Of a DNA stretch of 64,000 bases, positions 24,367-27,979 are shown in pieces. This stretch comes from Enterobacteria phage ECP2307: sequence record PP461118.1. The stretch is one strand, 5' to 3'. The notes beneath the pieces are model-generated. The model was not told the DNA's origin. It worked only from the letters and a program-made list of their open reading frames with translations, and made no database searches. Position 1 is the stretch's first letter; every line of letters starts with the position of its first letter. Both the position numbers and the translations under genes were made by a program.

Positions 24367-26745
24367 TTAAGCAGTTCTTACCCAAGCCATCAACTTATAG
24401 AACTGGTTAGTAACACTAAATGCCGAACCAGAACCTGTACTACCAGTGTTACCACTAACTGTATGGGTGTGAGCACCAATACCTACAGAGTGGGTGTGAG
24501 CGCCAGTGTTGCTTGTAGTACCAGACCATGTGTGTGTATGGTTACCAGTTGTGTTAGTGTTAGGGAACTTGTTATCAGTTCTGTCAAGCCAGTCAAGAGT
24601 TCTTGTCTTATTGTTACCAATAGTGGTATAGCCGTACTGAGCATCACCACCATTAACCAATAGCAGACCTAAGTGGTGAGCATGGTTACCAGCAGCACTT
24701 GTTGTACCACTTACAGTGTGAGTGTGACCGCCAGTGCTATTAGTAGCCTTCGTACCATAATCAAAAGATGAAGTGGTAGCAGAGAAACTGTGAGTGTGTG
24801 ATGGTAAGTTACCAACAGCTAACGTTACAGAATCTGAACCACCAGTTGTAGCAACATCTGAACCATTTGCTGCTGCAATCCTGATAGTTCTACCAACACC
24901 ATTGTTCAGGTACGTCCAAGTTAACCCAGGCAACACTGTGTTAGGGTCAACATTACTGTTAAACCACGTTACAATACCAACTGGATAGATTTTGTTAAGG
25001 TCTGTAGAGTCACTTACTGCCTGTGCAATCTTCTGGTCAGTTTCAGCTTTAGTGTATGCACCGATATCTGAAGGGGTTGGTTTAAAATCAGTTGTATAAA
25101 GTTGTGCTTCTCCGGCATAGTCACCATTTTTGTCATAGGCATAGGTGAATGTTGCCAAACCGTTTGAACCGTATACAAAAGAGATACCCCTTGCATGTGC
25201 AGCAGACTTACTAGAGTGAGCAACATGAATTGCCAACTCTTTCAGACCACTAGTCACACTGTTGTTTCTGACAAAACCTGAATATCCAAGATTAAATGCT
25301 GAAGGGTTTTCAAGGTTATCTACAGAGACAGTCATTAAGGATTGATTTAATAACTGAGTTTTAACAAAATATCTAGCATCCAAGTTAGACCAATCAGAAG
25401 GTTGAACTTGACCAGTGATGGTTAGACTCTTATTGGCCTTAATCGCTGAAGTCATAAGAGTAATTTGAGTCCCAGAAAAGCTGTTGTTTAAGGCTACATC
25501 AGTAGAATTTGTACCACCTACACCTACCCACCACCTAGATACGTTCGCAGTATCAACACCACGGATATATTGTGGCTGCCCCTGTGTTAAGTTTCTTAAT
25601 ACTACGCCTTCATTGTTCGATACAATAGTCTGCACATTTGTAAAAGTGTTTGCCACATTAAGTTTAGCAAGATTACTCAAAGTAGCTGCTGGAATGTATC
25701 TAGAGTCAATGTTAGACCAATCAGAAGGTTGAACTTGACCACCAATTTGGACTGTTCTGCTCATGGTAATGGTGTTGCCTAATGAGATTTGTGTTTTTGC
25801 TAAATAGTTATAGATGTTTACAATGTTCTCATCACCGTCATTACCAATGTACCACTTATTAGTTCCATCTGATTTTCTTGCTTGGATATACAAAGCCGCA
25901 GTGGTATCTACATTTTGAAGAGTAATAGCATTAGCATTCTTCTTAACAACAAAGTTAGTGAAAATATTAGAGCCACTAAATGTATTATTGCCAGCTAACT
26001 GTGCAAATCTCTGATTAGCTACTGTCTGAGTAAAATATCTAGCATCTAAGTTAGAGAAGTCAGATGGTTGAACTTGACCAGTGATTCTTAGTGTTTTGCT
26101 AATAGCAGCAACACTAGACAGATTAACTTCACAACCTGTCTTGTAGTTGTGGATAATAACATCATCATTCCCTGAACCATTACCTACATACCACCTATTA
26201 GCACCAGTGCTGTCCTGACCTCTAATATACAACGGTGAGTTCTCAGAAGAGTTTTTTAGTCTAATAGCTTCGCCATTTGCTTGAATAACCTGTTGGAAGG
26301 TAAAGATGTTATTTGCAGCTAATCTTGAGTATCTCGCATCATTCTCTTCATTAGTTCTCATCCCAAGCTCATTAGGACTTGGTTTATTCAGAGTATGGTA
26401 AACAGTTGCTGACCTTGAAGCATCTGCAACAGTTAGTTTAAGACCGTTTGCGTTAATTTTAAAAGTCTTTAAAACATCCCCGATATTAATCTCAGAAGAG
26501 CCTGTCGGGTTAAATACTACCTTACCACCATAAAGTAACTTAACAATCCCTAAATCACCCGTCATGGTACTACCAATAATCTGAACAAATCTCTCAAGCT
26601 TAAAAGATGCTAAGAAGTCTTGATAGGTCATTCGACGGTCTTCATCACCCAGCATTTCAGGTCTCTTTTTAACTCTGACATGAAGAAGGTCATCTGAACG
26701 GATTGTATCGATTGAGTTTAATTCACTCAATTTGTAATCTGCCAT
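24367..26745 (-). CDS. tail fibre protein (long), receptor-binding candidate
   Basis: 792 aa; three internal repeats ending TGQVQPSDWSNLDARYF; C-terminal His-rich HxH repeats (HTHSFS, GHTHTVSG, GNHTHTWSG, GAHTHSVG) as in myovirus fibre tips; C-terminus shared with 26792..27979. Confidence 0.7.
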   Translation of the reverse strand: MADYKLSELNSIDTIRSDDLLHVRVKKRPEMLGDEDRRMTYQDFLASFKLERFVQIIGSTMTGDLGIVKLLYGGKVVFNPTGSSEINIGDVLKTFKINANGLKLTVADASRSATVYHTLNKPSPNELGMRTNEENDARYSRLAANNIFTFQQVIQANGEAIRLKNSSENSPLYIRGQDSTGANRWYVGNGSGNDDVIIHNYKTGCEVNLSSVAAISKTLRITGQVQPSDFSNLDARYFTQTVANQRFAQLAGNNTFSGSNIFTNFVVKKNANAITLQNVDTTAALYIQARKSDGTNKWYIGNDGDENIVNIYNYLAKTQISLGNTITMSRTVQIGGQVQPSDWSNIDSRYIPAATLSNLAKLNVANTFTNVQTIVSNNEGVVLRNLTQGQPQYIRGVDTANVSRWWVGVGGTNSTDVALNNSFSGTQITLMTSAIKANKSLTITGQVQPSDWSNLDARYFVKTQLLNQSLMTVSVDNLENPSAFNLGYSGFVRNNSVTSGLKELAIHVAHSSKSAAHARGISFVYGSNGLATFTYAYDKNGDYAGEAQLYTTDFKPTPSDIGAYTKAETDQKIAQAVSDSTDLNKIYPVGIVTWFNSNVDPNTVLPGLTWTYLNNGVGRTIRIAAANGSDVATTGGSDSVTLAVGNLPSHTHSFSATTSSFDYGTKATNSTGGHTHTVSGTTSAAGNHAHHLGLLLVNGGDAQYGYTTIGNNKTRTLDWLDRTDNKFPNTNTTGNHTHTWSGTTSNTGAHTHSVGIGAHTHTVSGNTGSTGSGSAFSVTNQFYKLMAWVRTA

Positions 26746-26761
26746 TATATATTATCCTCTT

Positions 26762-26781
26762 AAAAGGGGCTATAAAGCCCC
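26762..26781 (-). terminator. candidate intrinsic terminator/attenuator between the two fibre genes
   Basis: Hairpin GGGGCT-ataa-AGCCCC followed by UUUU on the minus strand, then the RBS AAGAGGA of the next gene. Confidence 0.45.
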
Positions 26782-26791
26782 TGTAAAGAAA

Positions 26792-27979
26792 TTAAGCTGT
26801 TCTCTGCCATACATACAGTACGAATGATGGCTGCTCAATGTTGAAAGCTTGTCCACCACCAACACTATTCGTGTTTCCACTATGTGTATGCTCAGAAGAA
26901 GAAACTGTCACAGTACCGTTGTGTGTATGTGAACCAATACCAACTGTATGGCTATGAGCACCAATACCCACTGTGTGATTGTGGTTACCAGTTGTGTTAG
27001 TGGTAACGCTAAAAGAGTGGGTGTGCGAACCAGCGACTTCGCAGACAGCATCTGCTGAGTACCACGATTGGTCATTCCTTGTAGACCAAACCATTGCAGG
27101 TCTTTCCGACAGACCACCACCTGCTTCATAAGTCAATCTGTGGTTGTGAGCACCAGCAGCACTTGTTGACCCACTACCAACGTGATTGTGGTTACCAGTT
27201 GTGTTAGTGGTCTTTGTTCCATAGTCAAAAGAGTTGGTAGTCTTTGTTCCATAGTCAAAAGCTGAGATTGAAACAGTTGCATTATGAGTGTGACCACCAC
27301 CACTGAGAGACACAGAGTGTGAGTGTTGAGGCATATTATTAACTGACAAAGTGACAGTTGAAGCACCAAATACAGAACCTGCTGGCCTTGTATCAGAGTC
27401 ATAACCAACCAATGCCCTACCTTTTGAAACTAACTCCCAAGTACCTCCACAAATTAAGTATGTAGAAGGGTTTGCAGAGTTCATAGAAAGATGGATAGTA
27501 CCTACTGGATAAGAAGCCTGAACAGCCTTGTACAAGTTATTTACTGCTCTTGCTGTAGCATACTTATCTGCATCTTCATTATACAGGTTAGATGTTGTCC
27601 AGTTCTGAACATTACTTAAACCAACCTGTGCCTTAGTTGTATTGTGTGGGTTACTCTTGTCCTTGATATGTTGCTGGACAAGGTTATTAACCTCTTCTGA
27701 AGACATAATCTGTAGATTTGCTCTTGCCTCAGCTACATTAACAATATCTGATAAGTTATTTGCAGCAACTAACTGAAGAGCATTAATAACATTATCTAAA
27801 CCAATTTGTGTTTTAGTAACACCATGAGGGTTATTTTTTAGGCTTGAGTGTGGAGCAAGTAATTGCTCAAGAGTACATCTCTTATCCTCAATACCCTGCT
27901 TAAGATGGAAGATATCACTAAGGTCAATTGGTAAGGCTGCTTGAGGCAAGGCACTAATTTGAATTTCACCTACTGCCAT
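26792..27979 (-). CDS. tail fibre protein (short paralogue), receptor-binding candidate
   Basis: 395 aa; C-terminal HxH-rich domain (QHSHSVS, GGHTHNAT, GNHNHVG, GSHTHSF, GAHSHTVG); internal tandem duplication FDYGTKTTNSFDYGTKTTN; ends ...YVWQRTA like the long fibre (...MAWVRTA). Confidence 0.7.
   Translation of the reverse strand: MAVGEIQISALPQAALPIDLSDIFHLKQGIEDKRCTLEQLLAPHSSLKNNPHGVTKTQIGLDNVINALQLVAANNLSDIVNVAEARANLQIMSSEEVNNLVQQHIKDKSNPHNTTKAQVGLSNVQNWTTSNLYNEDADKYATARAVNNLYKAVQASYPVGTIHLSMNSANPSTYLICGGTWELVSKGRALVGYDSDTRPAGSVFGASTVTLSVNNMPQHSHSVSLSGGGHTHNATVSISAFDYGTKTTNSFDYGTKTTNTTGNHNHVGSGSTSAAGAHNHRLTYEAGGGLSERPAMVWSTRNDQSWYSADAVCEVAGSHTHSFSVTTNTTGNHNHTVGIGAHSHTVGIGSHTHNGTVTVSSSEHTHSGNTNSVGGGQAFNIEQPSFVLYVWQRTA

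Follow-up and report, generated by a model that had tools for sequence, protein, structure and literature searches.

Two paralogous tail fibres with T4 gp37-like tips and divergent head cassettes in the Felix O1-like phage ECP2307

Enterobacteria phage ECP2307 very probably carries two baseplate-attached fibres of the Felixounavirus kind, each ending in a receptor-binding tip of the T4 gp37 type and bearing a swappable head unrelated to that of the other fibre. The short (STF) and long (LTF) tail fibre genes lie in the 64,000-nt stretch of DNA analysed here (sequence record PP461118.1; hereafter, the window); all coordinates are those of the window, and all the fibre features lie on its minus strand. 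The reading is carried by the homology of the tips, the register of their HxH motifs, the gene context, the pattern of variability, and the sharing of head cassettes among phages. The two-fibre architecture with gp37-like tips is already known for close relatives: it was noted for VpaE1 in 2015 (PMC4690856) and was seen by cryo-EM in 2025 in Sf14 (PMC11821841) and Bas63 (PMC12609058).

The fibre genes and their neighbourhood

The window comes from a Felix O1-like myophage of E. coli in the genus Felixounavirus and shows 93-96% nucleotide identity to KhF2, EF202P1, and LTH02; in genomes of this type, the same two genes carry a tail fibre annotation. The genes for wedge 2 (489 aa), wedge 1, the platform, the STF, and the LTF follow one another in the order of Bas63 gp23-27 (PMC12609058), and the synteny from wedge 2 to the LTF, then small membrane-protein genes and a convergent thymidylate synthase gene, was the same in seven relatives. 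The 100-aa ORF upstream of the STF (27982..28284, minus strand; full-length match to PHROG 4141) is, by its position, the equivalent of Bas63 gp25, the T4 gp9-like LTF platform. Downstream of the fibres lie ORFs of 65 and 123 aa for small membrane or holin-like proteins, which fall into PHROGs without known function and are annotated as holins in relatives. A scan for promoters and terminators revealed nothing exceeding background inside the fibre locus, and its sole terminator-like site was at 23693-23716, after the 123-aa ORF. Among the neighbouring ORFs inspected, no gp38-like gene adjoined either fibre gene. T4 gp37 requires the chaperones gp38 and gp57A, and the gp38 gene of T4 is located directly downstream of gp37; fibre assembly in ECP2307 may thus differ from that in T4.

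The STF (395 aa, ending in YVWQRTA; 26792..27979) matched PHROG 2097, 'tail fiber protein', over its full length (E 2.3e-137) and was 68.5% identical in amino acid sequence to Sf14 gp52, which occupies the same place in the gene order. In a tblastn search with the STF, 294 phage records reached at least 80% STF coverage. The LTF (792 aa, ending in MAWVRTA; 24367..26745) matched PHROG 4277 over its full length (E 0) and Pfam gp37_trimer (PF20744) three times (E 5.9e-66). On sequence grounds, the two qualify as full-length orthologues of the Ounavirinae STF/LTF pair, corresponding to Sf14 gp52 (391 aa) and gp53 (792 aa), and they are equated with Bas63 (JohannRWettstein) gp26 and gp27 through gene order and fibre architecture. 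The sequence comparison with the cryo-EM relatives used Sf14, and Bas63 was likened through its published description, in which the gene order and sizes resemble those of ECP2307 (489-aa wedge 2, ~285-aa wedge 1, 100-aa ORF) and both fibres bear a collar, needle, and head tip (PMC12609058). As in other Ounavirinae pairs, the ECP2307 fibres resemble each other in the N-terminal segment for baseplate binding and carry gp37-like tips, while the heads vary between phages and those of ECP2307 differ from those of Bas63 and Sf14. Since Sf14 gp52 and gp53 were both detected in virions by mass spectrometry (PMC11821841), an approach also applied to the VpaE1 fibres (PMC4690856), and both fibres are placed in the Sf14 and Bas63 maps (PMC11821841, PMC12609058), a non-virion assembly chaperone is excluded as the role of either gene, including the STF.

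The N-terminal region of the STF (aa 1-45, including the EDKRCT motif; 27845..27979) has a mean identity of 96% across relatives, and the Bas63 and Sf14 papers assign baseplate binding to the fibre N-terminus (PMC12609058, PMC11821841). The N-termini of the STF and LTF match each other more weakly than the tips do (E 0.028), over a span that contains ...EDKRCT in one and ...EDRRMT in the other. The STF shaft (aa 46-135; 27575..27844) carries two NPHxxTKxQ[IV]GLxNVxN motifs; according to the alignment, the Zyzzx STF shaft has additional copies of it.

The LTF shaft (25357..26364) consists of three repeats (aa 128-239, 240-351, and 352-463), delimited by the Pfam matches, DNA repeats, and sequence anchors. 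Each terminates in GQVQPSD[FW]SN[LI]D[AS]RY, and the GQVQPSD anchors at aa 223, 336, and 445 give a period of 109-113 aa; at the DNA level, the repeats (family D2) are spaced by 327 and 339 nt. The three repeats reported in the earlier note are thus real, but their unit is ~110 aa rather than ~85 aa, a figure of 85-95 aa being suited to the Pfam core alone. These repeats also matched the T7 gp17 fibre structure 4A0T weakly. The shaft is followed by a mid-fibre knob (aa 464-555; 25081..25356), a second hypervariable region with a mean identity of 24% to relatives and a weak, sub-cut-off match to Pfam gp37_C; phage HY02 has a large insertion in this knob.

Tip homology and the HxH motifs

The C-terminal stretches of the STF and LTF (~235-260 aa) are homologous. 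In the comparison of the C-terminal domains set beforehand, BLASTP aligned LTF 560-792 with STF 136-395 at 34% identity (E 9e-24), so the His-rich tips are homologous and the genes are fibre paralogues, as the earlier note had proposed. When the PDB was searched with phmmer, STF aa 146-367 matched residues 18-228 of the T4 gp37 tip structure 2XGF (E 2.6e-26), and LTF aa 648-772 matched residues 105-219 (E 1.8e-20). Nine HxH motifs occur in the STF, all inside aa 219-366 (GxHxH in seven), and six in the LTF, inside aa 650-761 (GxHxH in five); none of 20,000 residue shuffles, with mean counts of 1.4 for the STF and 0.43 for the LTF, reached the observed count. The needle of T4 gp37 holds seven iron atoms (PMC6957217). 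All seven T4 motifs (H883, H915, H929, H966, H980, H989, and H998) align with HxH motifs of the STF, which has two more than T4, and six of the seven are matched in the LTF, which has one fewer. Across 63 homologues with identities down to ~30%, the STF pairs H278/H280, H342/H344, and H351/H353 show no variation or a conservation of at least 90%. By these alignments, both tips are gp37 homologues with their HxH motifs in register, which bears out the suggested likeness to the metal-coordinating HxH arrays of myovirus fibres; the fold indicated by the homology, however, is the gp37 collar, six-stranded needle, and head instead of the metal-binding triple beta-helix that had been suggested. The ECP2307 counts of nine and six (HxHH) compare with seven and six (HHxH) published for Bas63.

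As in T4 gp37, each tip comprises a collar, FDYGTK units, and two limbs with a head between them, and the strand at the C-terminus is predicted to lead back to the collar. The STF collar (aa 136-215; 27335..27574) has the T4 gp10/gp37 collar fold according to PF21939, the PDB matches, and the model described below, and it matches T4 gp10 C-domain chains as well as 2XGF from residue 18 on. The LTF linker and collar (aa 556-646; 24808..25080) align with the STF and T4 collars and are 86% conserved, with a Pfam Gp10_C score of 23.4 bits, under the 27-bit cut-off. The ascending needle limb of the STF (aa 216-281; 27137..27334) contains HxH at 219, 230, 264, and 278 and two FDYGTK units, and that of the LTF (aa 647-691; 24673..24807) contains HxH at 650, 674, and 688 (HAHH) and one unit. 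The descending limbs lie at STF aa 317-368 (26876..27031; HxH at 319, 333, 342, 351, and 364) and LTF aa 734-763 (24457..24546; HxH at 736, 750, and 759). The C-terminal strands, STF aa 369-395 (...QAFNIEQPSFVLYVWQRTA, with the stop codon at 26792..26875) and LTF aa 764-792 (...SAFSVTNQFYKLMAWVRTA, with the stop codon at 24367..24456; 90% conserved), align at the sequence level with T4 gp37 1016-1026 (...AFNYIVRLA; ...NIAFNYIVRLA in the STF alignment) and are ~10 residues longer than their T4 counterpart. The T4 collar is formed by residues 811-881 and 1010-1026 (PMC6957217), and the C-terminal motif common to the two fibres, recognised previously, thereby corresponds to the last residues of gp37, which close the collar.

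The tandem duplication FDYGTKTTNS/FDYGTKTTNT noticed before in the STF is confirmed at aa 241-260 (27200..27259), with 93% identity between its DNA copies (27203-27231 and 27233-27261). Other phages share it with ECP2307: every Felixounavirus and Mooglevirus STF examined had at least two copies, with three in warpig and four in Michonne, and T4 gp37 carries the equivalent TDLGTKTTSSFDYGTKGTN. A recent private duplication was rejected for this retention across the subfamily and in T4, and the sequences identify the unit as an ancestral needle repeat of variable copy number.

The ECP2307 fibres also differ from T4 in their build. In T4, four proteins make up a jointed fibre, of which gp37 is the distal portion, whereas in ECP2307 the tip is fused onto a single-protein fibre, and ECP2307 has two copies of the gp37-type tip per genome, unlike T4. 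The T4 gp10 C-terminal domain and the gp12 collar have the collar fold of ~75 residues in common with the ECP2307 fibres, but they lack a needle or head and have different N-terminal domains, and gp10 belongs to the wedge rather than to a fibre.

The STF monomer was modelled with AF2 on a 63-sequence alignment, with a pLDDT of 66.8 overall, 74-90 in the collar, and below 50 in the head. In this model of moderate quality, a long hairpin pairs aa 222-241 with aa 351-369. Its best Foldseek match in the PDB was the T4 gp10 collar (2fkk; probability 0.99, E 0.03); no PDB match fell under E 1e-3, and 2XGF was not retrieved. The hairpin also drew pore-forming toxins in Foldseek. A monomer model cannot reproduce an interdigitated trimer, so the prediction speaks neither for nor against the needle.

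Head cassettes and their exchange

The head between the HxH limbs (~35-42 aa) is hypervariable in both fibres: the STF head (aa 282-316; 27032..27136) and the LTF head (aa 692-733; 24547..24672) each have a mean identity of 8% to relatives, whereas the flanking limbs and regions show 62-90% identity overall and 65-67% in the STF. The STF head aligns with T4 gp37 tip residues 933-959, a region mapped by mutagenesis, and residues 929-959 of the T4 tip are essential (PMC6957217); variability and this alignment mark it as the presumed receptor contact. Only three identical positions in 49 columns were found between the two heads of ECP2307, and on that comparison they are unrelated.

The heads also differ in their distribution. 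The STF head occurred in 31 records, all of E. coli-type Felixounavirus, and the LTF head in 29 Felixounavirus records plus five records of four T4-like phages. Both were present together in 29 of the 31 STF-head records, VpaE1_ev78 and L27 being without this LTF head. The gp37 of the T4-like phage SHBML-50-1 (likewise AV122, BYEP01, and sutha) has the head and adjoining limbs of the ECP2307 LTF, with 83.2% nucleotide identity over 316 nt in the head region, only scattered amino acid substitutions across LTF aa 660-763, and the unusual NHAHHLGLLLVNGGDA, yet its collar, C-terminal strand, and remaining fibre are of the T4 type, and its FDYGTK units and descending HxH motifs outnumber those of the ECP2307 LTF. 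A Salmonella-type head was found in Felixounavirus, T4-like, and P2-like fibres, and Salmonella Felix O1-type relatives have one head type on both fibres, with signs of gene conversion.

The earlier note had raised the possibility of a recent tip exchange. Between the STF and LTF genes of ECP2307, such an exchange was rejected: the heads show no relationship, and at the DNA level the genes agree best over an 81-nt stretch of the needle, with 77% identity. The sequences do show exchange between the ECP2307 LTF and T4-like gp37 genes, as well as between the STF and LTF genes of Salmonella relatives. In the latter, gene conversion would homogenise the head cores while the flanking limbs stay gene-specific, and the genus would alternate between a state in which the short and the long fibre share a head type (Salmonella lineage) and one in which their heads are unrelated (putatively bispecific, as in ECP2307). 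Tentatively, and with a little less than even confidence, we propose that the head with its bracketing HxH limbs is a portable cassette that moves among phage families and between the fibres of one genome, with homogenised cores in Salmonella phages and a two-state genus. Tétart et al. reportedly proposed a His-box-mediated exchange for T-even gp37 in 1998; in the fibre literature surveyed, we found no description of gene conversion within a genome that involves its short and long fibre genes.

Proposed mechanism, alternatives and significance

Both fibres are taken, on the strength of their homology, to be homotrimers. In each tip, the chain would run from the collar outwards along the ascending limb to the small head, return along the descending limb, and close the collar with the conserved strand AF...W.RTA, so that in the trimer six limbs would build the needle. 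Each HxH motif of the three chains would then place six histidines round one metal ion (iron in T4), and with one ion per motif, up to nine ions would be expected in the STF and six in the LTF. Metal binding, trimerisation, and receptor identity are here attributed by homology. The head of ~35-42 residues would be the receptor-contacting cassette that determines host range, and the conserved HxH-coding limbs would serve as homology arms permitting head swaps by recombination. As the heads are unrelated, each fibre most likely recognises a surface structure of its own, presumably an LPS core variant, which makes the dual receptor specificity suggested earlier plausible.

Different heads need not imply different receptors, and both fibres might bind a single one, redundantly or cooperatively for avidity. 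The Salmonella relatives show that a phage of this genus can clearly manage with one specificity on both its short and its long fibre; the VpaE1 receptor is an LPS core carbohydrate (PMC4690856), and reports generally describe felixounaviruses as dependent on LPS alone (PMC8594841; bioRxiv 2026.04.02.716166). We nevertheless consider a single receptor unlikely for ECP2307, given the three identical columns of 49 and the presence in T4-like gp37 genes of the LTF head but not of the STF head. Considerably less probable is that the HxH arrays bind no metal and owe their conservation chiefly to a role in recombination, as 'His boxes', or to one as plain structural repeats. The HxH-coding limbs are indeed conserved DNA on either side of exchanged heads, and the fibre density in the published Bas63 maps is too poor for side-chain modelling (PMC12609058), but the T4 iron-binding motifs are in register with both fibres, the replacement of the iron-binding H929 and H931 of T4 by alanine abolishes plaque formation (PMC6957217), and the conservation of three STF pairs indicates constraint at the protein level. 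The metal-binding and recombination roles are, moreover, compatible with each other.

We give hardly any credence to the STF being a gp10-like baseplate protein or a gp12-like fibre folded under the baseplate, instead of a second lateral fibre. Its Pfam Gp10_C match (PF21939, E 1.4e-18), the T4 gp10 chains found in the PDB, and the best Foldseek hit suggest gp10, but the gp10 match (gp10 ~440-518) is confined to ~75 residues of the common collar fold (STF aa 143-220) and is weaker than that to gp37 (E 2e-5 versus 2.6e-26). No gp12 chain was matched by the STF or LTF at E<=1 in the phmmer search of the PDB, and in the cryo-EM maps of Bas63 and Sf14, a 430-Å fibre follows the sheath (PMC12609058, PMC11821841). 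The gp10 N-terminal and middle domains are absent from the STF, whose remainder is gp37-like, and a gp10 or gp12 homologue was rejected.

The range of bacteria open to attack by Felix O1-like phages is presumably set by their fibre heads. These phages are in use for Salmonella diagnostics, food biocontrol, and therapy cocktails. The cassette boundaries (STF aa 282-316 and LTF aa 692-733), together with their conserved flanks, provide a practical map for host-range engineering, and heads of the same types also serve T4-like and P2-like fibres.

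Two adjacent fibre genes and their published counterparts

Two adjacent ORFs on the minus strand, 46 nt apart, encode the short tail fibre (STF; 395 aa, 26792..27979) and the long tail fibre (LTF; 792 aa, 24367..26745), exactly at the coordinates given for the two fibre genes in the earlier note. Megablast assigned the window to the genus Felixounavirus (265 phage records matched), with E. coli phages KhF2, EF202P1 and LTH02 at 93-96% nucleotide identity, and both genes are annotated as tail fibres, in the same order, in seven relatives. Upstream of the pair lie ORFs of 100 aa and 287 aa and a 489-aa Baseplate_J protein. 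Downstream, two small minus-strand ORFs of 65 and 123 aa directly 3' of the LTF gene (23722..24287) are followed by a terminator-like hairpin (23693..23716) and then by convergent thymidylate synthase and DHFR genes. The 65-aa ORF has a hydrophobic N-terminus; the 123-aa ORF weakly resembles Pfam DivIC (septum formation initiator), with a score below threshold, and is annotated as holin or hypothetical in relatives. The wedge 1 gene (28284..29147, minus strand) encodes 287 aa from the GTG start chosen by the ORF lister; in relatives, the annotated start is an ATG two codons downstream, giving 285 aa, in agreement with the 285 residues of Bas63 wedge 1. Elsewhere, a cluster of 26 tRNA genes (47699..52876, minus strand) covers most amino acids.

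The C-termini of both fibre proteins of phage VpaE1 (gp74 and gp75) were likened to the T4 gp37 adhesin in 2015, in a paper that also identified LPS core carbohydrate as the receptor of VpaE1 (PMC4690856). In the Sf14 tail map, gp52 (391 aa, ~430 Å) and gp53 (792 aa, ~630 Å) are both placed, and both were found in virions by mass spectrometry (PMC11821841, 2025). The Bas63 structure identifies gp26 as the STF and gp27 as the LTF; its authors counted the di-histidine motifs and found that, within the genus, variation is greatest in the tips (PMC12609058, 2025). Since the gene order and protein sizes of Bas63 gp23-27 are the same in the window, and Sf14 gp52 is 68.5% identical to the window STF, the pair is correctly read as this known system, and the finding of two fibres with gp37-type tips is itself already known. 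T4-type loci contain a gp38-like fibre chaperone gene, whereas none adjoins the fibre genes here, among the neighbouring ORFs. Mu-type fibre chaperones were not found by the Sf14 authors (PMC11821841). Fibre assembly may thus differ from that of T4.

Histidine-rich tips of the gp37 type

The earlier note had proposed two fibres with homologous, HxH-dense ends and a common C-terminal motif, and this was confirmed. LTF residues 560-792 align with STF residues 136-395 at 34% identity (E 9e-24), and faint N-terminal similarity surrounds EDKRCT/EDRRMT; the C-termini are therefore related. Nor is either gene a non-virion chaperone, since the orthologues of both were detected in Sf14 virions. The STF has 24 histidines, 18 of them within nine HxH motifs (aa 219-366), and the LTF has six such motifs (aa 650-761). 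Shuffling the residues gave means of 1.4 (STF) and 0.43 (LTF) motifs, and the observed counts were never reached in 20,000 trials.

Both proteins matched the crystal structure of the T4 gp37 long-tail-fibre tip, 2XGF (STF, E 2.6e-26; LTF, E 1.8e-20), and the STF also matched T4 gp10 in its C-terminal domain, a region that shares this "collar" fold. When the tips were aligned to T4 gp37 residues 785-1026, the seven T4 HxH motifs (H883, H915, H929, H966, H980, H989 and H998) all lay opposite an STF motif, and six lay opposite an LTF motif. The STF has two more, at aa 230 and 364, one per limb of the needle. The C-terminal motif common to both fibres, AF...W.RTA, lies opposite the last residues of T4 gp37 (...NIAFNYIVRLA), and the variable segment between the HxH-bearing limbs coincides with the position of the T4 tip residues. 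In T4 gp37, the collar domain comprises residues 811-881 and 1010-1026, the needle holds seven iron atoms, and function requires the iron-binding H929/H931 and tip residues 933-959 (PMC6957217). The window genes are very probably a Felixounavirus STF and LTF, both with gp37-type ends, whose histidines would staple metal as in T4.

An AlphaFold2 model of the STF monomer, built with 63 homologues in the alignment, reached an overall pLDDT of only 66.8 (74-90 in the collar), with no resolved structure in the head; a long hairpin pairs aa 222-241 with aa 351-369, the interdigitated trimer being beyond the reach of a monomer model. Searched with Foldseek, this model retrieved the T4 gp10 collar (probability 0.99, E 0.036); there was no match below E 1e-3, and 2XGF was not among the hits.

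Repeats within the fibres

Pfam detected three copies of PF20744 in the LTF (E 5.9e-66), the number of internal repeats proposed in the earlier note; the proposed length of ~85 aa did not hold, as GQVQPSD recurs at aa 223, 336 and 445, a period of 109-113 aa. The tandem FDYGTKTTN duplication noted in the short fibre is present at STF aa 241-260 (27200..27259), with DNA copies 93% identical, and its T4 counterpart is TDLGTKTTSSFDYGTKGTN. Because every aligned Felixounavirus or Mooglevirus STF has two to four copies (LTFs have one) and T4 has the repeat as well, FDYGTK is an old needle repeat of variable copy number. The units of this phage (27203..27261) are nearly identical in protein sequence and diverge more in most relatives, a pattern suggestive of slippage or local homogenisation in the lineage of this phage. 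In the STF shaft (27575..27844, aa 46-135), two NPHxxTKxQ[IV]GLxNVxN copies occur at a spacing of ~61 aa, and further copies are present in Hafnia phage Zyzzx; shaft length therefore varies with repeat number.

Head cassettes and their possible exchange

Between the limbs, the head of each fibre (STF aa 282-316, LTF aa 692-733) shares a mean of 8% identity with six relatives, against 62-90% for the needle limbs, collar and C-terminal strand; the head is a cassette with sharp boundaries. The two heads of the window are unrelated to each other: 3 of 49 aligned columns hold the same residue in both. Thirty-one records contain the STF head, every one an E. coli-type Felixounavirus, and 29 Felixounavirus records contain the LTF head, each of them together with the STF head. 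The pairing is not fixed, because the LTF head of the window is missing from VpaE1_ev78 and L27, in which the STF head is present. The LTF head is additionally found in gp37 of four T4-like phages, SHBML-50-1, AV122, BYEP01 and sutha; with its limbs, it is 83% identical to these genes in nucleotides and ~85-87% in amino acids. In SHBML-50-1 gp37 (locus L011, 3073-3388), the match to 24457..24774 (LTF aa 658-763) extends over 316 nt at 83.2% identity and includes the head and adjoining limbs. These similarities indicate exchange of the LTF cassette between Ounavirinae and Tevenvirinae.

A second hypervariable block, a mid-fibre knob of the LTF (25081..25356, aa 464-555), has 24% mean identity to relatives, a below-threshold Pfam gp37_C match and a large insertion at the same place in HY02; the block might serve as an additional contact site or might simply be a spacer that tolerates change.

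With unrelated heads on its two fibres, the phage plausibly, and perhaps even probably, has two receptor specificities. Alternatively, both fibres might redundantly recognise one LPS structure.

Among Salmonella relatives, both fibres of Felix O1, SP116, Mushroom, UAB_Phi87 and GEC_vB_B1 bear a single head type, GGRYGGDSIGGK.RV.VSGT.Q, that is present as well in a T4-like Salmonella phage and in P2-like ones. Salmonella-type fibre loci are those of SP116 (L003, 3501-7056), Felix O1 (L012, 229-3794) and loci L014, L015 and L019; BPS17W1 (L016) is an exception, with a different and shorter LTF head. Within one genome, STF and LTF are 84-100% identical (mean 91.7%) over their 87-nt head cores, compared with a mean of 86.1% for STF and LTF cores taken from different genomes, whereas the flanking limbs show no within-genome excess (79.6 vs 79.5% and 63.9 vs 63.9%, within vs between genomes). 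In SP116 and Felix O1, eight informative sites of the head core group by genome and none by gene, while in the limbs 22 group by gene and four by genome. With head cores alike inside a genome and limbs sorting by gene, these few genomes suggest that conversion between the STF and LTF genes, limited to the head core, takes place in Salmonella Felix O1-type phages. Novelty, if any, lies in the finding that heads are common to several families and homogenised within Salmonella-phage genomes, and the head-cassette observation extends what is known of how fibre tips evolve as modules.
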